A stretch of DNA of 64,000 nucleotides from Candidatus Bathyarchaeia archaeon (GCA_049515895.1 JBEKTQ010000023.1:1-64000); one strand, 5' to 3'. Counted from the stretch's first letter, positions 6,737 to 25,166 are shown. Translations and numbers: made by a program. The notes: a model not told the origin generated them from the sequence alone.

Positions 6737-7630
6737 CTAAAGTATGAAGATTAGGAAGATGCCAGCTACAATGGCGATTGCTCCCAGAACTGCTTTGATT
6801 GTCATTTTTTCATGGAAAAGCATAAAGCCGGCAATTGCCGCGAAAAGAGGCGATGTGGAAGATATAGGTACTGCTCGAGTTAGTGACGTGCTTAGGAAAC
6901 TGTAGTTCATCAAGAACCACCCGACGCCGTTAGCCACTAGCCCCCCGACGCATAACGCCGCTACCGTGCTTCGCTTCATCTTCACAAAACCATGTTCTTT
7001 GTCAAGGAAAGGCGAAAGCAGTAAGAAGAAAAAAGCAACTGATGCTATCCTTAAAGTTAAATTGGCGTAGTTGGCACTAAGGCCGGTTACGCTTGATACA
7101 GCAACATTCATCATGCTGATGCTGACCGACCAGATGACCGCCGTTACCAAACTCACGGCGAGACCAATTAAAACCAATTTGCCTTTAACACCTGTATCCT
7201 CAAAACTTCTCTCTCTGCTCAACAGCCAGATTCCGAAGATGATTACAACAGACCCGAGAACAGCCGCCAGAGTCAAAGGTTGATTCAGTAGAAAAGTCGC
7301 CCAGATCAGACTGAACAGGGGATAAGTAGCTGCCAAAGGGACCGCACGCGACACACCTACGTACTTGAGGCCAATCATGTAGAACGTGTCCCCGACGCCC
7401 AGACCGATTATACCGCTAGCAACAACTAAGACGATGGTTCTCTCCGGCAACGCGGCTAAAGTACCCGCTAAACCAAAAAACAGCAGAACAGCAACCAGCA
7501 CACCAGCATTTGTTGCACAACGAACAATGTTTGCAGAAAGGGGCTTAGCGTTTAGCAAAGCTTTCCTGTAAAGTATTGGTGCTACAGCCCAGCTTAAGGA
7601 GGCACCTAAAGCAGCAAGTTCTCCAATCAT
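6737..7630 (-). CDS. DMT/EamA family transporter
   Basis: About 10 hydrophobic helices in two repeats; GVSRAVPLAATYPLF. Confidence 0.88.
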   Translation of the reverse strand: MIGELAALGASLSWAVAPILYRKALLNAKPLSANIVRCATNAGVLVAVLLFFGLAGTLAALPERTIVLVVASGIIGLGVGDTFYMIGLKYVGVSRAVPLAATYPLFSLIWATFLLNQPLTLAAVLGSVVIIFGIWLLSRERSFEDTGVKGKLVLIGLAVSLVTAVIWSVSISMMNVAVSSVTGLSANYANLTLRIASVAFFFLLLSPFLDKEHGFVKMKRSTVAALCVGGLVANGVGWFLMNYSFLSTSLTRAVPISSTSPLFAAIAGFMLFHEKMTIKAVLGAIAIVAGIFLIFIL

Positions 7631-7857
7631 TGACCCAAGTAACCGTGGAAACCTACTATTGGTCCTTCGATGTTATGAACATTCGTTTCGTTTTAAAGAG
7701 ATTAACTTATGAAGGAAGTGTTTTTTGGGGAAAAACAGGGATCACCCAATTGCCATTTTAGAGCTAGCTCACATGTTAAGACGGAATTGCATTTATTAGG
7801 AAGTTTAGCTTAATAATGGGTACTTCCGCAATGAACAATAAAAAGGAGTGATATTAA

Positions 7858-11310: not shown

Positions 11311-11387
11311 GGGCCGGTAGTTCAGCTGGTATGAACGCTTGACTTGCACTCAAGAGGTCGGGGGTTCAAATCCCCCCCGGTCCACCA
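11311..11387 (+). tRNA. tRNA-Ala(UGC), intronless, encoded CCA
   Basis: Cloverleaf GGGCCGG/CCGGTCC with G3:U70 Ala identity pair, anticodon arm CTTGA-CTTGCAC-TCAAG, T-arm GGGGG-TTCAAAT-CCCCC. Confidence 0.96.
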
Positions 11388-11433
11388 AAAAACCTTTATT
11401 CTCCCAAAACTACTCATTTTCTGGTGATTTAAC

Positions 11434-11667
11434 TTGGAAGTGGAGGTTAAGGGTGTCGACGAGCAGGGACGCATCATATTACCGAAGGTCTGGCGTGAAA
11501 AATACCTCAAGAACAAGAAGGCTATCGTCTCAGCCAAAGGCGACACCATCGAAATCAAGCCTTATTCCGCGGTTGACCTCACCGAATACTTCGATAAAAT
11601 GGACGTAGACTTAAAGGCAGACCTCGCAGATTGGCACAAAGTCCGCAAAGAACTAAGAGGCAAATGA
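11434..11667 (+). CDS. AbrB/MazE-family antitoxin
   Basis: VDEQGRIILPKVWRE swapped-hairpin signature; directly upstream of a PIN gene. Confidence 0.85.
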   Translation: MEVEVKGVDEQGRIILPKVWREKYLKNKKAIVSAKGDTIEIKPYSAVDLTEYFDKMDVDLKADLADWHKVRKELRGK

Positions 11668-11668
11668 A

Positions 11669-12094
11669 GTGTCCCAAGCCTACGTCGACGCGAACGTGTT
11701 CATTTATGCTTTTCTTAAAACTAAAAGGCAACTGCAACCAAACGAGTTAGAAATAAAGCAAGCAGCCAAAAATATTGTTACCAGAATCAGCAAAGGAGAA
11801 AAAGTAATCACATCCGTTGTCCACTTTAGCGAAGTCTGCAACGTTTTAGAAGACCACCTCCCGTCTGAAGAAGCGATTCTATTAGAAAAGGGGTTGCTGT
11901 ATCGAGAAAACGTTTCAATCTGTGAAGTAGCCCAAGAGGATTACATTAAAGCCGTATCCATAGCGGAAGACCATAATGTGGGCGTTAACGATGCATTGGC
12001 TTACGTACTCATGAAAGAACAAGCCATACAGGCAATCTACTCTTTTGACAAAGACTTCGATGCATTTACTGATATCCGCCGAATAATTGAGTAA
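11669..12094 (+). CDS. vapC: VapC-type PIN-domain toxin
   Basis: YVDANVFIY, E at SEV, VNDAL, IYSFDKDFD acidic catalytic residues. Confidence 0.9.
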   Translation: MSQAYVDANVFIYAFLKTKRQLQPNELEIKQAAKNIVTRISKGEKVITSVVHFSEVCNVLEDHLPSEEAILLEKGLLYRENVSICEVAQEDYIKAVSIAEDHNVGVNDALAYVLMKEQAIQAIYSFDKDFDAFTDIRRIIE

Positions 12095-12120
12095 AGAAAT
12101 CTTTCAAGACCGATATTTGA

Positions 12121-12188
12121 GTAATCCAGTCGGTTGAACGCTTGACTTGCACTCAAGAGGTCGGGGGTTCAAATCCCCCGGTCCATCA
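12121..12188 (+). repeat. Partial tRNA-Ala duplicate (attR-like)
   Basis: 12135-12185 identical to tRNA 11332-11384 except 2 C missing in the C-run; degenerate 5' part GTAATCCAGTCGGT. Confidence 0.9.
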
Positions 12189-13613: not shown

Positions 13614-13674
13614 AAAAAGGAGGGATATGCGGGTGGCATCTCCACTCAGAGCGAGGTTCAAATCCCCCGGTCCA
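13614..13674 (+). repeat. attR-like site: conserved arm plus tRNA-Ala 3' end
   Basis: GGGATATGCGGGTGGCATCTCCACTCAGAGC + GGTTCAAATCCCCCGGTCCA; arm near-identical to 19796-19856. Confidence 0.85.
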
Positions 13675-13715
13675 TTAGAATAACTCCCGGTCATTTTGGT
13701 GACGCTTGGACTGAA

Positions 13716-13820
13716 TTACTTTCTTTTTCTGAATAGCTTGTTGTCACCGAAGTCACAGACGAATTCAAAGCCCGCCTCAATGAGTTGCCAAGCTTCTTGT
13801 TCGGTGAGAGCTACCTTGGC
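13716..13820 (-). pseudogene. C-terminal remnant of a tyrosine integrase
   Basis: Hand-translated AKVALTEQEAWQLIEAGFEFVCDFGDNKLFRKRK*, resembling the C-terminus of Bathyarchaeia site-specific integrases; ends about 40 bp from an att-like site. Confidence 0.7.
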
Positions 13821-13821
13821 A

Positions 13822-14003
13822 CCAAGGCCTTCCGCGGATCGACTCGCATAGAGATAGTCTTTTTGATATTTTATTTTGTTATTTTATATGTTCTGATGAT
13901 AAGGTAAACCGAGAAGGCCTTTCCTGTTATACCCGCCAGATTTTGGAAGACCTTAAGCACGCCGAGATCAACGTACATTGCGAGGGCAAAGGCTGTCGCC
14001 GCA
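13822..14003 (+). repeat. Palindromic repeat copy A (13822-13954) plus truncated start of another copy (13969-14003)
   Basis: CAAGGCCTTCC...ATTTTATATGTTCTGATGATAAGGTAAA...TTTTGGAAGACCTT, then CAACGTACATTGCGAGGGCAAAGG. Confidence 0.85.
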
Positions 14004-14025
14004 GTTTAAGCCCAAAATAAAATAG

Positions 14026-14313
14026 TTACTCATAATGAATAACATTTTGGGGCCTACGATGAATCTTGTGATCTTTAGTCGGCGCAGTATTTTTTGCTAT
14101 AAGCATTGCTGAAATTACGGCATCTGTATAATCATCCATTTCGTTCTGAGGCCAAAAGTCAGCTGATTCAAACAATCTATCTTGTGACTGCAATGCGCCT
14201 TGTGCGAGAAACCCGATAAGCTTTGTAGCGTTATCTTGAGTAATCCCGCGAATTATTAATTGTCCAGTTTGCTTTTTTTGCAATTTTGTTTTGCTCATCC
14301 TTATCACTTTCAA
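14026..14313 (-). CDS. Hypothetical protein
   Basis: 95-aa ORF between repeat copies; no recognised motif. Confidence 0.5.
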   Translation of the reverse strand: MKVIRMSKTKLQKKQTGQLIIRGITQDNATKLIGFLAQGALQSQDRLFESADFWPQNEMDDYTDAVISAMLIAKNTAPTKDHKIHRRPQNVIHYE

Positions 14314-14412
14314 GACTGATGCTCGACTTATTCTTTTGTACTTATACCCACTTTAGTTTAAAAAATAGCACTTATATGCACCGCAAAAAATTAGAACGCT
14401 CAAAAGGCTGTT

Positions 14413-14566
14413 CAATGTGCATTGCGGGGGCAAAGGCCTGTCGCGAAACGGGCGCCATAGGATAAGCCAACCCCAAGATTATTTATTGCATTTTATATGT
14501 TCTGGTGATAAGATAAATCATAAAGACCTTCTTCCCTCTATGAGGTAAATTTTTGGAAGCCCTTGG
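14413..14566 (+). repeat. Palindromic repeat copy B
   Basis: CAATGTGCATTG..GGCAAAGGCC..CATAG..TTTTATATGTTCTGGTGATAAGATAAAT..CTATG..TTTTGGAAGCCCTTGG. Confidence 0.9.
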
Positions 14567-14573
14567 TAGCGGT

Positions 14574-14873
14574 TTAGCGCATGCGAATGCTCTTAAAGGC
14601 GTGTTTGTGGGATTTGAGTACTACGGAGATTATGGTGCTTTGGACGCCTTTGATTTTCATGATTTTCTTATGCAAGACGTTGCGGAACTCTTCTATGCTC
14701 GAAGCCGAAACTATGGAAACAATGTCAAATTCGCCTTTAACGTCATAAATCTCTTCGATATTTTCAACCTTTTCGAGGGCATCTATGACTTGCGCTTTCT
14801 GAGGCGGATCAACAAAAATGTTAACTGAGGCCTCAAACCGACCTTGAATATTACTGGACTCCATATTGGTCAT
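14574..14873 (-). CDS. Lrp/AsnC ligand-binding (RAM) domain protein
   Basis: IEEIYDVKGEFDIV...IMKIKGVQST. Confidence 0.8.
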   Translation of the reverse strand: MTNMESSNIQGRFEASVNIFVDPPQKAQVIDALEKVENIEEIYDVKGEFDIVSIVSASSIEEFRNVLHKKIMKIKGVQSTIISVVLKSHKHAFKSIRMR

Positions 14874-15171
14874 TAAAAACAGTTAAGCGGGTCAGGCAGC
14901 TTTTAGGCATTTTTGAGAACTGAGGCGGGCTATTTTGCAAAGCGGAGCGGGCTAAAAGGCTTATCAATCGATAGCAAGAATTATAAAATTCCAGAAGCAT
15001 CGATGTCGGTTCTTCCAAGTCTTTGAGGGCTTTGGATTAATGTCAAAAGTTAAGGGATTGAACGTAAGCTCTGCATTTTTGACACGTGTCATAGGAATTG
15101 ACAAATTAGTAAAGTGTATTTCGCAACAACACTTATTTCCAGTTTGGCTGCACTCACCAATTGGATGTGCC

Positions 15172-15321
15172 ATGCCTAAGAGAATTAGAGCAGTTACATT
15201 CGTCATGTTACCTTTTGCCGTTTTCGCATGGGTGATTGGATGGACCATGTGTTTAGCAGGCGAAAAAAAGGTAACCCGGCAAAACAAAAAATCCCTCACA
15301 GTACATATTGTTCAAAATTGA
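15172..15321 (+). CDS. Small membrane protein (49 aa)
   Basis: MPKRIRAVTFVMLPFAVFAWVIGW single TM helix. Confidence 0.4.
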   Translation: MPKRIRAVTFVMLPFAVFAWVIGWTMCLAGEKKVTRQNKKSLTVHIVQN

Positions 15322-15521
15322 AGTTGTACCACGCGCTGTGCAGGTTTAAAGCTGACAGTTTAGCTGAAGGCTTGAATAGTCTCTTCGCCCGCGCTCAAAA
15401 TCAAAACTTCAGTTATGGCGCTTTCCCTCCATAGAATTGGGCTTTCAGACAAAACTAGTCTTACGTTAATTCATAAACTCTTTATATTACTACTAATTCT
15501 AATTTTGGTTAGCTGTTCGCT

Positions 15522-15827
15522 ATGAATCGATCTAAGCTTGAGCGATACACTATTAGACGATCTAAGCTAGAAATGTACCTTGACCTTCTCAAAGTTTTAG
15601 CTCAGCGCGATCCGCTGAAGCTCACCCATATTATGCATATGACTAACCTTAATTGCAGCGTGTCGAAAAAGTACCTTGACTTCTTGACTCTGCAGGGGCT
15701 GGTTGAAGAGAAGATCATTGGAAGAGAAAGAATAGTCTATGCGATCACCCAGCGTGGCGTGACAGTGCTTAAGCAGCTCAGAGAACTCAAAGAAGTGCTC
15801 CCCATCGTTGAAGAAACAGAAAACTGA
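15522..15827 (+). CDS. Winged-helix transcriptional regulator (ArnR1/HTH_45-like)
   Basis: RRSKLEMYLDLLKVL, THIM...NLN, YLDFL..QGLV, YAITQRG. Confidence 0.85.
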   Translation: MNRSKLERYTIRRSKLEMYLDLLKVLAQRDPLKLTHIMHMTNLNCSVSKKYLDFLTLQGLVEEKIIGRERIVYAITQRGVTVLKQLRELKEVLPIVEETEN

Positions 15828-15951
15828 GCAGCGCACGCGCTCCTCTTTTTGATAAATATGAATTTCAAATTCATAAATACTATAAGTAGCCTCGATAAAT
15901 ATTTGTCATAAACACGTTTCTACACAACTAACTTGGAGGTGGGAACGAAGA

Positions 15952-16479
15952 ATGAGCGAAGTTATTCTGGAAAAGTCAAACAATGCAAAAAGGAAAACCT
16001 GTTTAATTGGACACCCAGACACTACTCGAACACATACTCATTGGCCCGTGGCTTTTTCTTATCCAGAGGATTTAACAAATGCCTACCTGTTGGAAAACAA
16101 AAAGTCCGCGGTTTTGAAGAGACTTGAGCATGCTCATGAAAAGCTGAAGGACGCTCGCGAAGAGATTAATGAGGCTGTTTTGGCGGCACTAGAAATGAAG
16201 GAAGCTCGCGACGATATCGCGGACCAGATGACAGCCGCAATAGTGGCGCGAGGCGCTATCAGAAATGCCGAGATTACACTGAGTCAAGCTCAAACAAAGA
16301 TAGAACACCTCAATTTTGAGCACAGAAACGTGGACTCTAAACAAGCAAAGGAGGAAAAAATGGAATTACCGAAAAAAAACTTGAGCATTACTGCGGATTT
16401 TGTTATCGTGAAGGGTGTGTCTCTTGAAGAGAGACGTATAGAAGCGGAAAAACCGTTATACCTAGCAAGATATGAATAA
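15952..16479 (+). CDS. Hypothetical coiled-coil protein
   Basis: RBS GGAGG; heptad-rich central region. Confidence 0.55.
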   Translation: MSEVILEKSNNAKRKTCLIGHPDTTRTHTHWPVAFSYPEDLTNAYLLENKKSAVLKRLEHAHEKLKDAREEINEAVLAALEMKEARDDIADQMTAAIVARGAIRNAEITLSQAQTKIEHLNFEHRNVDSKQAKEEKMELPKKNLSITADFVIVKGVSLEERRIEAEKPLYLARYE

Positions 16480-16789
16480 TCAGGTAACACGAGCAGGTCT
16501 ATGCGTAACACCCTAATTTTCACTACAGATGCCACGCATTTGTTTTCTTCGCGGTATTTTCCCTCTTTTTTTATCAGCGCGCGGTTCCTCAGCCTAAATC
16601 CAGGAGATGCGTTAGAGGGGCGAATGGAAACAGCCGGAAACGAGCGCGTAGCCACAGTCAGAAAGGTCTGAAAGTTCCAAAAACCGCCCGAAAATCCGCA
16701 AGGGCAGAAATGTTGTCCCAAACCAAGGCTAGGCCAGTACGCTTGGCGCCCCGAAAAATTGCCGGAAAAAAAATCGGGCAAAATCGATA

Positions 16790-16938
16790 CAATGTACATT
16801 GCGAGCAAAGGTCCTCCGAAAACTGGTGGGTATAGAGTGGGTAAGTTTGAATTTATTTATTTGATTTTTAATGTTCTGATGATTAGATAATTTGTGGAAG
16901 GCCTTTTCCTCTATGGGCTCCAGACTTTGAAAGGCCTT
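16790..16938 (+). repeat. Palindromic repeat copy C
   Basis: CAATGTACATTG..CAAAGGTCCTCC..TTTTTAATGTTCTGATGATTAGATAAT..CTATG..TTTGAAAGGCCTT. Confidence 0.88.
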
Positions 16939-17083
16939 ACGAACGAGTTACAGGGGCAAAGTTCCAATCCTTATTTGATAATACTGTTAATTCTGTTTAA
17001 CTTAAAAAGAAAAACCCCTATATCATAAATAAGCAGATGAGCTAAGTGCATGAAGCGGAAAGACTTCAAAGCTCAACCAAAGA

Positions 17084-17359
17084 ATGCAAGAGGCATTGGA
17101 GAGAAAGCAATTGGCATCATTAAAATGGACAACCGTTGACCCAGATGGAAGCCTCTTTTCAAGGGGAAAACACGATTACTATGCAATTCTCGTCCGAGGA
17201 ATCCCCGAAGAACATCCTAAAGACTGTATTGTAGAACTCTACGTGACGGATAAAGAAATGACAATTTTTGAGATTAAGGTCAGCGCAGTTAATGAAAAAA
17301 TTGAGCTATTATCTATACCTTACGATAAAGCAAGGGGACACCTATTATTGCCTTTGTGA
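17084..17359 (+). CDS. Hypothetical protein
   Basis: 91-aa ATG ORF between repeat copies C and D. Confidence 0.55.
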   Translation: MQEALERKQLASLKWTTVDPDGSLFSRGKHDYYAILVRGIPEEHPKDCIVELYVTDKEMTIFEIKVSAVNEKIELLSIPYDKARGHLLLPL

Positions 17360-17572
17360 CAGTTGAAATCTATTTCACAAACGCCGTACTCTGATTGCGG
17401 CAAAGACCTTGAAGAATTCAAGCGGGGAGGTTAGAGTTTGCGGAACTGCGTGAAGACGGCGAACCATCCAACAGTTCCCTCTGAACCTGCCCAATCAAGC
17501 AAACGATTTACTTTTTTTAAACCTTATGCATTCAAGATACATAAAAATCGCCGAAGCGCAAACTTGCCCGGT

Positions 17573-17726
17573 CATTGTACATTGTTTGGGGCCAAAGGCC
17601 TGTCTCCGATTGAAGCCTTTAGGATAAGTCAAATCAAAATTTATTTTATTCATTTTTAATGTTCTGATGGCAAGGTAAATTCAGGCAGGCCCCATTCTAT
17701 GGGGGTAAATTTTTGGCAGACCTTGG
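17573..17726 (+). repeat. Palindromic repeat copy D
   Basis: CATTGTACATTG..CAAAGGCC..TTTTTAATGTTCTGATGGCAAGGTAAAT..CTATGGGGGTAAATTTTTGGCAGACCTTGG. Confidence 0.9.
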
Positions 17727-17768
17727 TACGGTCGTATGCCTCTTTCACTGCAATATTCCCATGCATAT

Positions 17769-17804
17769 TACGCACTTAAACGCATACACTTATAAGTGCG
17801 TATG
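17769..17804. promoter_or_regulatory. Palindromic operator/promoter upstream of the RHH pseudogene
   Basis: TACGCACTTA...CACTTATAAGTGCGTA with a perfect 12-bp palindrome CACTTATAAGTG overlapping TTATAA. Confidence 0.5.
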
Positions 17805-17934
17805 TACATGTATGCTAATGTGAATAAGTGAAATCGAAGGGACAAAAGATGAAACAAATAAGAACCGAATACAAAAGTTGGCTACTCACTTATTTCAAAA
17901 ACATGTAACCAGCAAAAAAAACAGGTGACTAAAA

Positions 17935-18077
17935 TTGGACCGCATCAACGTTGACATTTCAGACGAAATAGACAAACAGCTCAGACTAAAAACCGTAGAA
18001 AGATTCGGAGGCAAAAAGGCGACTTATCCAAAGCTGTCCAAGAAGCGGTAAAAACATGGATCGACAAAAAACAATGA
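17935..18077 (+). pseudogene. Ribbon-helix-helix (CopG-like) gene with 1-nt frameshift
   Basis: MDRINVDISDEIDKQLRLKTVERFGGK / GDLSKAVQEAVKTWIDKKQ*; adding one A in GGCAAAAAGG restores the frame. Confidence 0.7.
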
Positions 18078-18234
18078 AGCCGTCCCTCTTCAAATCCCAA
18101 TAACTATCTTATAAGAAGCCTATGCAAAAGGCCAGGGAAGCCAGTTAGCCTGGAACTCCTCGCATGAGGATTATGGGCAATCTAACTGCAAAACCCCTTT
18201 ATAGAAAAGTTTCAATCTGCTGCGTTATCCTATG

Positions 18235-18389
18235 CAATGTACATTGTGTTGGGCAAAGGTCTTCCACGAATTGGCAGCCATAGTATAAGTCAACCTACGT
18301 TTTGTTTATTGTATTTTATATGTTCTGATGATAAGGTAAAACCTGAAAAGCCTTTTCCTCTATGGGGGTAAAATTTTGGAAGACCTTGG
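18235..18389 (+). repeat. Palindromic repeat copy E (best preserved)
   Basis: CAATGTACATTG; AAGGTCTTCCA..CCATAG inverted to CTATGG..TGGAAGACCTT; core TTTTATATGTTCTGATGATAAGGTAAAA. Confidence 0.92.
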
Positions 18390-18472
18390 CTGGCCTTCCA
18401 GATGCTAGAAAATTTGGGCAGCCAAAACCATTTTAACCATCTTATCTTTGATATTAATCAGAGGTTGTCAAC

Positions 18473-18811
18473 TTGGCTAGCTGCAATGCAGAAACTGCGC
18501 AGAAAATCCTCAGCACAGTTCCGTACGCCCAGGGTTTCCACTTCTTCATGCCGGACGGCCATTATACAGGCGAAACAGCAATGTCTCTCTGCTCTTTCCT
18601 AAGAGACCTGGGAAGGTTAGACGGGCAATCAATCAAGTTCCATTTCGAGCGCACCGACTTTCAAAAGTGGATAAGAACCACAATCGGGGATGAGGAACTT
18701 GCCCGTAGAATCGACAAATTGGGTAAAAAATTGCCAGAAGAAAGTTTGCCGCAACAGTTAACTGACATAGTGCAGAAACGAATTTCTGAACTGCAGTTGA
18801 CAGATACTTGA
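18473..18811 (+). CDS. DUF5752-like protein
   Basis: GFHFF...YTGETA.SL..F, SIKFHFER.DFQKWIRTTIGDEELA. Confidence 0.75.
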   Translation: MASCNAETAQKILSTVPYAQGFHFFMPDGHYTGETAMSLCSFLRDLGRLDGQSIKFHFERTDFQKWIRTTIGDEELARRIDKLGKKLPEESLPQQLTDIVQKRISELQLTDT

Positions 18812-19011
18812 GAACAAAAAGCCTGTGCCTATTTTGGAGGGGTTAAACAAAACATGCCAACCTGAGGATTCAGCTTTTCGAACAAACTCCGAGGTTCAAG
18901 AATAATCTGTTGACAGATGCAGGGTTTGCTGAGGCTCTGGAATATTTTTCCTTAGGAGAAAAGAACAAAATGCAAATGTCCTACACGAAAAAGGAATAGA
19001 CGTGGAGAGTT

Positions 19012-19686
19012 CTAACTGCTCCCGCTACATTGAATACCGTCTAGAGTGCTAGTGTTTAGATTACCAGAAGAATTAGAGTAACCGTTTTGAAGGCCTGCTA
19101 GGTCCAAATTTGCGGGGTTCTGTTGGTTTTCCACATTAAGGTAAACTGAGTTCCACCAAACGCTATGTCCTCCAGCAGTGTAAACAGTTACCTTATACGC
19201 CCCGTTTCCTGGTATAGGCAACGCAAGAGTACCAGTCACGGGATTCTGGCTAGTCCCAGGCCATGGAGGCACCGCATAATTTGCCTCATAACTTTGTCCA
19301 GTATCTGACCTAACAGCGACGTATCTTACAATCTGGTCCTTGTACCAATTGTTAACTTTAAGCCAGCTTGGATAAACCGTTCCTTGAGTGGCAGCTGCGG
19401 TTGGTGTAGGTGTTCCTGATGAGGGTGTGGTTGACAGCAGATTACCCAGAGATCCGGTAGCCACCAATATAACAACAATAAATCCGAGGACAAAAACGAT
19501 TGCCAGTACAGGGCCCAACTTTTGCGGTTTGCCGGCCGTTCTTTTCATTCTGTTATTTATTTGATGAGAAGGAACACTGGGACTTACAGCGACTCGTTCG
19601 CCATTTCTAATAATTCTCGCGCCACAATCGGAGCAGAACTTTACATCTACGCTAATTTCAGCACCACATTCTGGGCAAAACGGCAA
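19012..19686 (-). CDS. Zinc-ribbon membrane-anchored protein
   Basis: CPECG..FCSDCG double zinc ribbon, one TM helix, extracellular domain. Confidence 0.75.
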   Translation of the reverse strand: MPFCPECGAEISVDVKFCSDCGARIIRNGERVAVSPSVPSHQINNRMKRTAGKPQKLGPVLAIVFVLGFIVVILVATGSLGNLLSTTPSSGTPTPTAAATQGTVYPSWLKVNNWYKDQIVRYVAVRSDTGQSYEANYAVPPWPGTSQNPVTGTLALPIPGNGAYKVTVYTAGGHSVWWNSVYLNVENQQNPANLDLAGLQNGYSNSSGNLNTSTLDGIQCSGSS

Positions 19687-19795: not shown

Positions 19796-19856
19796 AAAAA
19801 AGGGGATTTGCGGGTGACATCTCCACTCAGAGCAGGGTTCAAATCCCCCCGATCCA
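19796..19856 (+). repeat. attR-like site: conserved arm plus tRNA-Ala 3' end
   Basis: GGGATTTGCGGGTGACATCTCCACTCAGAGC + GGTTCAAATCCCCCCGATCCA. Confidence 0.85.
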
Positions 19857-20081
19857 CTCATCCATGCATTCCGTGTTTTGTCTCAAGAATTCGCAAATTG
19901 CGGAACATAACAAGCTTGAATTAGGGTTTTGCTGAGGCTCTGGAAGGAAGAAGAGAAACAGATCTGATTGCAGCCGATAGCGAATGGAGACTAAAGCCCT
20001 CTGAGGTCTAGGTCTTTAATCATTGCTTTGAAGGATTAAAAAAATAAAAAAGGAAGGAGGTCTTTTGCTTTTGGTCTTGGT

Positions 20082-23051: not shown

Positions 23052-23113
23052 AAAGGAGAAGGGAATTTTGCGAGTGAAATCACGGCAGTTCTGGGGTTCA
23101 AATCCCCGATCCA
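23052..23113 (+). repeat. Degenerate attR-like site (arm plus tRNA 3' end)
   Basis: GGGAATTTTGCGAGTGAAATC..GGGGTTCAAATCCCCGATCCA. Confidence 0.7.
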
Positions 23114-23212
23114 CATAAAATTTTTTACTTCGACAATCCTTATGTTTAGACTTGGAGATTGGTTACTTTGAGGAAAAAAAGAAACACGTTAGTTTTGGAG
23201 AAGCGTTCGTAA

Positions 23213-24896: not shown

Positions 24897-25006
24897 TTTT
24901 CATCGATAAGCAATTGGCAGAATCTCTTTAAAACCTACATTTTTTAAAACCCGTTAAAAACCCTTTAACAAGCTTTCAAAACCCTTTAATCATTAAGCTA
25001 AAGGAA

Positions 25007-25066
25007 CTGAGGATAAGTAAAACCGGAAAGCCTTTCCCTCTATATCCCCAAATTTTCTGAAGACCA
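25007..25066 (+). repeat. Partial (right half) palindromic repeat copy F
   Basis: CTGAGGATAAGTAAAACCGGAAAGCCTTTCCCTCTAT..AATTTTCTGAAGACC aligns to the right half of copy E. Confidence 0.65.
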
Positions 25067-25166
25067 TGCGCGTACCCAAATAGGTTGTGCCTTATGCGGT
25101 CATAGGAAACTCGCTGTATCACGAAGGTGAGAACCCTTTTATAGCCAACTTTTCAGAGTCATACTG

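Follow-up and report, generated by a model that had tools for sequence, protein, structure and literature searches.

A ~155-bp polar repeat as a candidate junction element of modular cassette arrays in integrative elements of Bathyarchaeia

Introduction

Integrons and CALINs are built from co-oriented repeats less than 4 kb apart around small cassettes, with content and order that vary between related genomes. Gene 3′ ends adjoin the site, a tyrosine recombinase stands at the end of some arrays, and the cargo includes regulators, toxin-antitoxin-like genes and defence genes. All of these traits recur in the system described here, which we found in a 64,000-nucleotide stretch of DNA (the window) from a Candidatus Bathyarchaeia archaeon (GCA_049515895.1 JBEKTQ010000023.1:1-64000). 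Integrons with canonical attC sites are reported for Archaea by Ghaly et al. (2022, PMC9668308).

The SSV1/pTN3/pT26-2 elements, as presented in a review (PMC8371274), share with the elements studied here a PF16795 integrase, an att site in the int reading frame (codons ~7–21), a tRNA 3′ end as target and an int gene that is split. Unlike them, the Bathyarchaeia elements belong to a peat lineage rather than a hyperthermophile and have cargo partitioned by 155-bp units; the parts of the review that we drew on make no mention of such internal repeats. They equate the ‘suicidal’ integrases with PF16795 families, and state that the pTN3 integrase recombines identical segments down to 104 bp (PMC8371274).

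Tycheposon-like or tandem tRNA islands resemble the window at 12–40 kb, where variable DNA follows tRNA-Ala and contains several scars left by tRNA tails; unlike in tRNA-anchored serial-integration islands, however, the Bathyarchaeia junction unit is no copy of the tRNA end. Botstein's modular theory is said to describe mosaic phages with conserved module-boundary (‘linker’) sequences. Such linkers are similar in placing conserved sequence where mosaic breakpoints fall and in allowing exchange without a fixed crossover, whereas the Bathyarchaeia linker is long, motif-rich, polar and present at every junction. Botstein's theory is cited, under modular evolution, in the review named above (PMC8371274).

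Results

A family of polar repeats in arrays

Using a profile of five copies, nhmmer recovered an array of five ~155-bp units on the same (+) strand across 13806–18390 of the window (E 1.3e-34 to 1.1e-43), confirming the five co-oriented copies of an earlier note on this DNA. The units and related fragments are as follows.

13806..13958, + strand: repeat copy A, profile match from 13818 (nhmmer E 1.3e-34; second search E 1e-32)
13969..14005, + strand: left end of a further truncated copy, palindrome and left-arm start (weak profile match, E 0.31)
14413..14569, + strand: repeat copy B (nhmmer E 3.5e-41)
16790..16943, + strand: repeat copy C (nhmmer E 3.4e-37)
17573..17728, + strand: repeat copy D (nhmmer E 1.5e-38)
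18235..18390, + strand: repeat copy E (nhmmer E 1.1e-43)
25007..25070, + strand: lone repeat right half, profile positions 91–154 (nhmmer E 8.8e-5; second search E 2e-6)

Both partial copies had been proposed before. The one at 25007 is a genuine right half, while that at 13969 gives a weak profile match (13969–13999) and agrees with the first part of copy B at 88% of positions in a 26-nt stretch.

Palindromes of the AAGGCCTT type are conserved at three places in each unit, namely in both arms and in the middle, and the unit further contains an AT-rich stretch and a nearly invariant core, TTTATATGTTCTGATGA. The termini are inverted repeats (CCAAGGCCTTCC-like) with conserved ends, and the inverted arms of copy E extend over 31 nt with 74% complementarity. 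A 12-bp palindrome precedes every copy but A; it is perfect at C and E and imperfect at B and D. The core, middle motif and inverted arms proposed earlier were likewise all found. Unit size ranges from 136 to 155 bp, and truncated copies occur.

The source genome holds 13 copies, nine of them in two arrays, the second array being four copies within a 5.6-kb element integrated in tRNA-Thr. Repeat matches were present in 16 of the 61 genomes searched; within the genus the family occurs, always clustered, in 14 of 36 genomes, and a weak match was found in one of 24 genomes from other families of the order. Among congeners the distribution is patchy, from zero copies in several near-complete genomes to a maximum of 18 (G016). 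Strand was uniform within each of 20 mapped multi-copy loci (70 of 70 copies). At least one pair of neighbouring partial copies, G001:C3 1524866+/1525672−, has its members on opposite strands. Copies are thus clustered and co-oriented rather than scattered, in the source genome and elsewhere, as had been claimed. Identity between unrelated copies is 63% whether they come from one genome (215 pairs) or from two (1356 pairs), and the conserved columns are the same. Since the within-genome value is no higher than the between-genome one, there was no burst, and the conservation favours a sequence-specific function over drift or recent expansion.

Conservation of sequence without a common fold

Covariation of the arms was absent across 62 copies. 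Paired cells made up 74.5% of the total, and shuffles gave 75.3%; pairing was at least as high in 448 of 500 shuffles, and the covariation score fell below theirs. The copies share no fold (z-scores −2.25 to +1.66), RNAalifold gave no consensus structure, and Rfam, searched at the gathering threshold and at E up to 1, gave no overlap with the unit save one sub-threshold chance match. The earlier description of a structured, folded site with accessory arms is therefore not supported. Since three palindromes are conserved without covariation or a consistent fold, the arms look like protein-binding motifs. Resemblance to tRNA was at background level, with best local scores of 8–11 against four tRNAs and an att remnant (null median 10, 95th percentile 13). 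The arrays do have at least two co-oriented sites less than 4 kb apart around variable cassettes, as integrons and CALINs do. The attC boxes RYYYAAC...GTTRRRY, however, were found on neither strand in any of 59 copies, where shuffled sequences average 1.05. The earlier statement that the array is neither CRISPR nor attC was upheld. A Xer/dif- or cer-type site, which the earlier likening of the core to an XerD arm would imply, would have two inverted binding arms of ~11 bp on either side of a 6–8 bp spacer that matches the host dif, and would depend on XerA.

The array-bearing island behind tRNA-Ala

The window array lies in a variable island with the following landmarks.

11311..11387, + strand: tRNA-Ala(TGC), anchor of the island (ARAGORN, Rfam)
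12122..12184, + strand: partial duplicate of the tRNA-Ala 3′ part (partial Rfam tRNA match, sequence comparison)
13615..13680, + strand: degenerate tRNA-like att remnant, tRNA-proximal side of the array-bearing unit (sequence comparison)
13700..13805, − strand: classical tyrosine integrase remnant, last ~33 codons (translation, alignment)
19796..19861, + strand: another degenerate tRNA-like att remnant, bracketing the array-bearing unit on its distal side (sequence comparison)

The left flank of tRNA-Ala is syntenic in G003, G008 and G014, and window positions ~12.1–40 kb are absent from their locus. A VapB/VapC-like pair (11434–12091; Pfam MraZ/PIN) precedes the tRNA-Ala duplicate, a scar of an earlier integration. 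The two att remnants are alike (13615..13680 versus 19796–19849, 87% over 54 nt). Between them, the integrase remnant runs straight into copy A at its left arm, to which it is fused, and aligns to the 3′ end of a 421-aa PF00589 integrase beside tRNA-Ala in G014, a repeat-free genome; this fusion suggests that a repeat was inserted into foreign DNA. No other integrase was found in the window between 9 and 28 kb. At six loci the array starts 22–363 nt behind a co-oriented tRNA.

Cassettes and their shuffling

The window cassettes hold these genes.

14029..14313, − strand: cassette gene, 95 aa, no family (ORF; Pfam and PADLOC without match)
14577..14873, − strand: Lrp/AsnC RAM-domain gene (Pfam AsnC_trans_reg, E 5e-15)
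15522..15824, + strand: winged-helix HTH_45 gene (Pfam, E 8.2e-15)
17084..17356, + strand: cassette gene, 91 aa, no family (ORF; Pfam without match)
17935..18080, + strand: ribbon-helix-helix (RHH) gene, frameshifted in an A run (translation, homologue)
18473..18808, + strand: DUF5752 gene (Pfam)

Small DNA-binding proteins are the commonest cargo. Pfam upheld the Lrp RAM, winged-helix and DUF5752 assignments made previously, and the proposed RHH gene, although frameshifted in the window, has an intact 50-aa homologue in another genome that matches RHH_6 (31.6 bits, cutoff 27); the extra A at 18012 is present in contigs from three metagenome runs. One long cassette contains 15040–15318, 15522–15824 and 15952–16476.

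Homologous modules recur elsewhere. The cassette with the 95-aa gene has a homologue in G016 (family F6), and the end of the 91-aa gene cassette is 93% identical to a G016 cassette end (F7). The RHH cassette (F2) is also found in the C2 array, G020, G002 and G012, the repeat-DUF5752-repeat cassette (F3) in G016, G002 and G020, and HTH_45 genes in other arrays. The RAM gene ends with its stop codon 5 nt from the right arm of copy B, a junction found again on other contigs and genomes (flank homology to C40, G016 and G012 copies, 87–89%).

Across 19 arrays, 43 cassettes comprised seven families (26 cassettes) and 17 singletons. The families, among them RHH, DUF5752 and Lrp-RAM, have differing neighbours and orders between arrays. 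The tRNA-Thr elements of G000 and G016 encode integrases that are 89% identical, contain four and seven repeats respectively, and have no cassette in common. The proposal that the repeats delimit shuffled cassettes was thus borne out across arrays and species, and the invariant cargo that would have spoken against it was not seen.

The two ends of the repeat are inherited with different flanks, the left half with the upstream cassette and the final ~20 nt with the downstream cassette. Pairs of copies homologous in the upstream flank only (n = 12) show excess identity in repeat columns 1–66 (48/80/68/70%, against 10/61/55/50% in 1571 unrelated pairs), and pairs homologous in the downstream flank only (n = 25) show it in columns 138–155 alone (83/80% versus 57/48%); recurrence of the same cassettes makes these pairs non-independent, and genes in the other genomes were called as crude ORFs. 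Columns 83–137 are tied to neither flank. A 100% identical internal duplication in G016 begins within a repeat, at columns 116–121, and estimated change-points fall at columns 108–122, 128–139 and ~158 in downstream-only pairs and at columns 20–56 and ~133 in upstream-only pairs. Exchange points scattered in this way are at odds with the one fixed crossover of integrons, and the single recombinase crossover point implied earlier is not supported.

An SSV-type integrase linked to the repeat

The tRNA-Thr element (C2) carries an SSV-type ‘suicidal’ tyrosine integrase with its stop codon inside a repeat arm. Its catalytic domain matches Phage_integr_3 (PF16795; 32.1 bits, cutoff 27) as the sole hit, with no match to PF00589, and its neighbours in a language-model comparison belong to PF16795 clusters, most often from Bathyarchaeota. 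A 45-bp repeat of the tRNA-Thr 3′ end encodes ORF residues 15–29 and is the att site; the other end of the element holds the integrase start codon and six codons, the gene being split on integration. One G009 contig has an uninterrupted 296-aa integrase gene with the same att stretch.

The stop codon of a PF16795 integrase overlaps the repeat right arm at six loci in five genomes, and all eight genomes with a match of at least 60% identity to the C2 integrase contain repeats. At one integrase locus, in G063, the 3′ end has no repeat. The gene lies in convergent orientation at the distal end of the array and is bounded by units on its own account. Most arrays, including that of the window, have no nearby integrase of the PF16795 clade. 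A tyrosine recombinase, the class of enzyme that had been proposed, is thus physically tied to the repeat at the second locus and in other genomes; beside the window array stands only the ~33-codon remnant of a different, classical integrase.

Weighing the explanations

A transposon origin accounts for several features of the unit. As a MITE (a non-autonomous transposon bounded by terminal inverted repeats) that has built up in the intergenic DNA of mobile elements, it would have the expected size (136–155 bp), inverted termini, AT-rich centre and multicopy, patchy occurrence among congeners with truncated copies. Unlike MITEs, however, it is polar and clustered, with strict co-orientation per locus, and shows neither a within-genome excess of similarity nor a target-site duplication of at least 6 bp in the 33 copies with both ends. 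Flanking duplications of 5 bp occur at four of these copies versus two in the control and those of 4 bp at 16 versus seven; the 4-bp excess may come from the conserved ends. The termini of the one IS found within an array are unrelated to those of the unit, and parts of the unit are inherited with their flanks. None of the random orientation, target-site duplications (of at least 6 bp) or IS-like ends named earlier as marks of a MITE was found, and we consider this origin quite improbable. The unit is also a poor fit as a structured non-coding RNA gene or cis-regulatory RNA. A CUGAUGA motif in the core and the complementary arms would suit such a role, but Rfam, RNAalifold and covariation are all negative and the motif varies between copies (CUGGUGA, CUGAUGG), against a ribozyme core, making an RNA very hard to credit. 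Least tenable of all is a canonical integron attC site or CALIN recombined as folded single strands, which the features that define such a site refute. The layout of the arrays fits it, as do their small cassettes, their variable content and their patchy distribution, but the 155-bp unit with its invariant core lacks R″/R′ boxes and conserves its sequence, not a fold, with pairing that does not covary. The integrase matches PF16795 only and not PF00589, which an IntI enzyme combines with an IntI-specific domain; it is convergent at the far end of the array rather than divergent at attI, cassette genes lie in both orientations, and the array sits inside a tRNA-integrated element.

Transcription offers a stronger competitor, although still an unlikely one. 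The unit could mark a transcriptional boundary, terminating transcription in both directions or acting as an insulator, and might include a promoter, its AAGGCCTT palindromes serving an element-encoded wHTH/RHH/Lrp-type regulator; shuffling would then be a by-product of the same sequence lying between all transcription units. Gene 3′ ends are tight against the unit on both sides (−22 to +19 nt), and convergent neighbours are the commonest arrangement (17 copies, out of 59 in all and 49 with both neighbours called; divergent, 9). T-rich tracts on both strands, a TATA-like TTTATAT in the core, the conservation of sequence instead of structure and the prevalence of small DNA-binding proteins in the cargo agree with this, as does the start of the G016 integrase gene ~20 nt from the repeat left end, a distance that would oblige its promoter to be part of the repeat. 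Yet unit orientation tracks the array and not the adjacent genes, all four neighbour combinations occur, the distance to start codons is not fixed, and both the co-inheritance of repeat halves with flanks and the fusion of copy A to a truncated gene are left unexplained.

Discussion

The reading that we prefer, to which we give an even chance, takes the ~155-bp unit as the element that joins the modules of cassette arrays carried by integrative mobile elements of Bathyarchaeia. The repeat family, its clustering and polarity, the shuffling of cassettes, the linkage of repeat halves to flanks and the tie to an integrase speak for it, with attC, MITE, tRNA-mimic and RNA-structure signatures absent; the apparent insertion of copy A into foreign DNA and the sequence-specific conservation also count in its favour. 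All of these observations are comparisons of sequence, and against the reading count the scattered exchange points, the low identity of the copies, the many arrays without a PF16795 integrase nearby, the G063 locus and the opposed pair in G001:C3.

Under this junction model, the unit would act as double-stranded DNA with conserved motifs, placed the same way round throughout an array, between modules that each have one or a few genes whose 3′ ends adjoin it from both sides, and its palindromes would be bound by proteins. The unit itself would be the recombination substrate, modules passing between arrays by recombination within units. The intermediate could be a circle with a single unit that integrates into an array or loops out, which would leave direct repeats automatically. 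The left half of the unit would move with the upstream module and its last ~20 nt with the downstream module. The carriers of the arrays are elements that insert into tRNA genes, and in one lineage these use the SSV-type ‘suicidal’ integrase. Candidate catalysts are the PF16795 integrase, if it acts with little sequence specificity, a different recombinase in trans, and the homologous recombination of the host. The last of these would work poorly on copies that share no more than ~63% identity, and identical DNA was required in the pTN3 precedent. On this model, mobile elements of peat Bathyarchaeia would possess an integron-like shuffling array that works without integron sites or an integron enzyme.

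Anatomy of the repeat unit

A repeat search and MAFFT alignment recovered the five repeats at the positions given in the earlier note, all on one strand, and an nhmmer-type profile built from the five copies found each with an E-value between 1.3e-34 and 1.1e-43.

Full repeat units in the window
13818–13958 (by profile), + strand, unit A
14413–14569, + strand, unit B
16790–16943, + strand, unit C
17573–17728, + strand, unit D
18235–18390, + strand, unit E

The suspected partial copy at 25007 was also recovered by the profile, as a right-half copy (25007–25070, E 8.8e-5). The second suspected partial (13969–13999) resembles the left end of unit B (88% identity over 26 nt), although its profile score is weak (E 0.31). 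Three head-to-tail units of 10–11 bp (TTTAAAACCC-like) lie at 24943–24984, just 5′ of the solitary half repeat.

The anatomy of the unit was drawn from 13 copies in the window's own genome (G000) and 59–62 copies of eight genomes. A 12-bp palindrome upstream of the unit is optional and present for some copies only. The left arm opens with CAAAGGYCTT, followed by CATAG and an AT-rich stretch, and leads to a nearly invariant core, TTTATATGTTCTGATGA, with TAAGRTAAA or variants next. Positioned 3′ of the core are the middle AAGNCCTT motif, CTATG, a variable segment and the right arm, AATTTTGGAAGRCCTTGG. Because AAGGCCTT reads the same on both strands, the ‘inverted arms’ described previously are one palindromic motif in three copies. 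The variable segment (alignment columns 125–137, for example 18362–18372 in the window) carries a run of G, GGGGGTAAA, or of C, ACCCCCCAG, and which of the two is present differs even where the downstream flanks are 94% identical.

Distribution of the repeat family

A profile search of G000 (3.18 Mb, 53 contigs) identified 13 copies at E ≤ 1e-9: five in the window, four co-oriented on contig C2 (176.7–181.3 kb), and lone copies on contigs C10, C24 and C40 and at 72.5 kb of the window's own contig, C23. A sequence-only covariance model run on 61 genomes identified the family in 16, including 14 of 36 from the same genus (G000 not counted), with one weak match (E 2e-4) among 24 genomes from other families of the order. 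The genomes compared are MAGs, with ORFs in other genomes called mechanically, and copy number ranges from zero, in several near-complete genomes, to 18 in genome G016. Clustering and co-orientation, both proposed earlier, hold across the family, with 70 of 70 copies one-stranded per locus in the 20 multi-copy loci mapped. Orientation departs from this pattern in G001, where two partial copies separated by 0.8 kb are opposed, and in a distant copy on contig C65 of G020.

An exact scan for the degenerate core across one genome per species (185,579 species) returned 34 stretches, of which 31 are from MAGs labelled Bathyarchaeota or Bathyarchaeia, one is from an ‘uncultured archaeon’ and two are from contigs of an Acidoferrum-labelled MAG. 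The latter are two short contigs (loci L069 and L084, labelled Candidatus Acidoferrum) that carry a Bathyarchaeia unit and integrase, and are probably mis-binned. No IMG/VR viral contig matched the exact degenerate core pattern, and the 155-bp unit is not described in the portions of the published texts consulted.

Folding and attC tests

The description of the repeat as structured was not borne out, as the arms show no covariation in 13 or 62 copies and the copies have no common fold. RNAalifold gave no consensus structure for the 13 copies. With the arm pairing written out, 76.6% of cells are paired in these copies, compared with 75.7% in column shuffles; for the 62 copies the values are 74.5% and 75.3% (448 of 500 shuffles were at least as high), and the covariation score of the arms is below that of the shuffles. 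As single-stranded DNA, the five window copies fold with z-scores of −0.95, +1.66, −0.48, −1.18 and −1.62 (−2.25 for the minus strand of copy E), and the motifs that pair differ by copy: A pairs its left and middle motifs, C its middle and right motifs, and E its left and right motifs. Since there is pairing without structural conservation, the complementarity stems from the conserved sequence, as would be expected for protein-binding motifs in duplex DNA. A hammerhead or C/D-box, considered on account of CUGAUGA, was rejected, given that Rfam returned nothing for the unit and the motif is variable in some copies.

We agree with the earlier note that the unit is not an attC site: attC boxes are present in none of 59 copies, structure is unconserved, and the linked integrase is from another family. 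The archaeal integrons in print have canonical attC sites and IntI, according to PMC9668308. An array of tRNA-tail cassettes was also considered and rejected, with similarity between the unit and adjacent tRNAs within chance. The same is true of a candidate link between att (the integration site) and the unit: in tRNA-Thr, the anticodon arm matches TGATAAGGTAA of the core at 10 of 11 bases, and the acceptor stem matches GAAGGC.

Cassettes and their shuffling

Three of the cargo genes proposed for the window have Pfam matches.

Cargo genes of the window array
14577–14873, − strand, Lrp/AsnC RAM domain
15522–15824, HTH_45 (the proposed wHTH gene)
18473–18808, DUF5752

The fourth, an RHH gene (17935–18080), is correctly identified, as an intact 50-aa homologue in G020 scores above the RHH_6 cutoff, but its frame in the window is broken by an A-run frameshift. 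Contigs of three metagenome runs have one extra A at 18012 and an open RHH frame; the discrepancy reflects either variation between strains or faulty assembly. Other arrays carry HTH_45, RAM, DUF5752, Alba, hemerythrin, TrmB, histidine kinase and DUF1643 genes, as well as the defence-type SIR2 (PADLOC SIR2, E 3.5e-18) and AbiU-like (E 3.8e-39) proteins. One cassette of the C2 array (locus L001, 9242–11505) encodes a SIR2 protein, matched by PADLOC SIR2 models, and a 305-aa protein whose named language-model and fold neighbours are TIR/DUF4062-like, below the tool's bar; the two may be a Thoeris-like defence pair.

The proposed shuffling of cassettes is supported. We cut 19 arrays into 43 cassettes (omitting locus L042, a near-duplicate of L041), giving seven families, whose 26 members have differing neighbours, and 17 singletons. 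The RHH cassette is preceded by four different cassettes or by none. The tRNA-Thr elements of G000 and G016 have the integrase and tRNA flank in common and share no cassettes. Comparing the flanks of 59 copies, many pairs are alike on one side only. An empty-site search for the solitary C10 copy gave no empty site, its flanks splitting into small modules that match scattered places in other genomes. Short contigs of four DNA metagenome runs contain repeat ‘joints’ with other letters between the two sides; these joints seem to be additional mosaic copies, belonging to different loci or different organisms.

Exchange points within the unit

Pairs of copies alike in one flank were compared, block by block, with an unrelated reference of 1571 pairs. 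Pairs sharing only the upstream flank (n = 12) are 48, 80, 68 and 70% identical across the blocks of columns 1–66, compared with 10, 61, 55 and 50% in unrelated pairs, with no excess from column 83 onward. For pairs sharing only the downstream flank (n = 25), the excess is solely at columns 138–155 (83 and 80%, compared with 57 and 48%), leaving columns 83–137 tied to neither flank. Recurrence of the same cassettes makes these pairs non-independent. An internal duplication in G016, 100% identical, begins at columns 116–121 and ends at the next unit's left edge in one copy and in non-repeat DNA in the other. Other downstream-only pairs change at columns 108–122, 128–139 or the right end, and upstream-only pairs at 20–43, 45–56 or ∼133; the upstream-only scan is marred by unaligned first columns, and we relied on the block analysis and pairwise alignments. 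As judged from these alignments, the exchanges have no single crossover point.

Identity between unrelated copies is 63.0% for 215 within-genome pairs and 62.8% for 1356 between-genome pairs. Such equality is evidence against both a recent burst and frequent gene conversion, and means that the conserved columns are held by selection for a sequence-specific function.

A linked suicidal integrase

The C2 array sits in a 5.6-kb element between 45-bp direct repeats, one of which is the 3′ part of tRNA-Thr(GGT). At the far end of the element is a 315-codon ORF with a match to Pfam Phage_integr_3. The 45-bp att corresponds to residues 15–29 of this ORF, while the true start (MNQGEE) and promoter are at the opposite end of the element, beside the tRNA. 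This layout is the ‘suicidal’ SSV-type arrangement, attributed to PF16795 families in the review PMC8371274. A search of structure-bank sequences with the integrase returned no matches at E ≤ 1.

The last codons of the C2 integrase are encoded by a repeat's right arm, a junction found at six loci in five genomes (C2 of G000, G016, G020 twice, G009 and G028); one integrase locus in G063 is without it. All eight genomes with a match of at least 60% identity to the C2 integrase bear repeats (G000, G009, G010, G016, G020, G023, G028 and G029), and G063 has repeats and a match of 70% identity. Seven repeat-bearing genomes have no match of at least 60%, and the more distant integrase paralogues have no repeats nearby. 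In six loci, the array starts 22–363 nt past a co-oriented tRNA (Thr or Cys).

The G016 element has an integrase 89% identical to that of C2, the same tRNA and seven repeats. Its integrase (locus L036, contig C5 of G016, 6749–7654) has two in-frame stops and is a pseudogene, despite the seven-unit array. In G009, the integrase gene (locus L097, contig C14, 2928–3818) is uninterrupted, encodes 296 aa with the tRNA-Thr att stretch inside, and neighbours one full unit and one right-arm stub. L097 lies on a 5-kb contig that has the integrase between large secreted-protein genes and shows no terminal overlap; it may represent the element in an unintegrated state.

The island behind tRNA-Ala

The left flank of the window is syntenic up to tRNA-Ala (11311–11387) in G003, G008 and G014, while the window's ∼12.1–40 kb is missing from the tRNA-Ala locus of all three. 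In G003 and G008, genes like those at 40–62 kb of the window come soon after the tRNA, marking a variable island of ∼28 kb (12100–40000).

tRNA-tail scars in the window
12122–12184, scar
13615–13680, scar, to the left of the array
19796–19861, scar, to the right of the array
23070–23115, scar

The second and third scars flank the array and are 87% alike over 54 nt. With the fourth, they are degenerate tRNA-like 3′ pieces with unpaired T-arms, not called as tRNAs, and from their sequence look like decayed att sites from serial integrations. The stretch 11311–12184 comprises tRNA-Ala, an AbrB/MraZ-like and PIN (VapBC-like) pair, and a ∼60-nt duplicate of the tRNA 3′ part, which make up a minimal integrated module that lacks an integrase. 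The same VapBC-like pair is found at the G008 tRNA-Ala locus.

The minus strand immediately to the left of copy A holds the final ∼33 codons of a classical tyrosine integrase, whose full homologue (421 aa, PF00589) lies beside tRNA-Ala in repeat-free G014. Homology to the G014 gene stops exactly at the left arm of A, which indicates that the array, or its first unit, entered a different element and cut a gene; to the extent that G014 is a guide, this entry did not involve exchange with a repeat already in place. A 21-bp direct repeat (18922–18942 and 19925–19945, 95% identical) surrounds a zinc-ribbon membrane protein gene (19015–19686, − strand) and an att-like remnant, and the segment between may be another small insertion.

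Mechanism and alternative explanations

The best-supported reading is that the units are junctions where modules of integrative elements are exchanged. Were a circle to integrate at a unit, this would account for the direct orientation, the fixed orientation of each cassette family and the separate inheritance of the parts of a unit. Protein guidance is favoured by the conserved motifs and by the low identity between copies; a classical fixed-site reaction is made less likely by the scatter of the exchange points. A better fit would be short-patch archaeal homologous recombination or a reaction like that of the related pTN3 integrase, which according to PMC8371274 is low-specificity and homology-assisted, recombining identical segments of at least 104 bp. 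A more specific, three-part proposal, which we consider unlikely as a whole, is an independently evolved archaeal analogue of the integron run by the suicidal SSV-type (PF16795) integrase. Here, the integrase would act in cis or in trans to capture and excise cassettes at the 155-bp units; AAGGCCTT-type palindromes would be arm sites, with strand exchange in or near the invariant core; and the integrase gene would itself be a cassette. A single enzyme would then dock the array at a tRNA gene and also rearrange the cassettes within it. For the family itself, the outcome of the shuffling is like that of an integron, with small cassettes swapped between arrays and species; the parts are different, namely a long motif-rich junction unit and tRNA-integrating elements that carry a suicidal integrase.

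A clustered MITE, a mobile repeat with inverted ends, is very unlikely: such ends are present, but the units keep a strict polarity, their identities show no burst, and the one IS found in an array has other termini. No target-site duplication of at least 6 bp was found in 33 copies. The unit may serve as a terminator or insulator, a role that agrees with gene 3′ ends abutting units (from −22 to +19 nt, with starts at variable distances) and that could coexist with the junction role. By crude ORF calls of at least 60 aa, with 10 copies uncallable, the genes flanking units are convergent in 17 cases, tandem in 13 and 10 (the two directions) and divergent in 9; the orientation of the unit is that of its array, independent of gene direction.

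Peat and sediment harbour abundant Bathyarchaeia, archaea that are uncultured and whose gene exchange is, to our knowledge, little understood. The repeat family is a gene-shuffling architecture with regulator and defence-type cassettes (SIR2, AbiU-like). Integrase action on the units, if it occurs, would add to the range of reactions ascribed to archaeal tyrosine recombinases, and cassette capture would then have been solved a second time, independently. Should host recombination be responsible, the units would offer one of the few clear examples in which conserved ‘linker’ sequences drive modular evolution among mobile elements. Either way, the profile from this analysis can be used to locate such arrays and catalogue their cargo.
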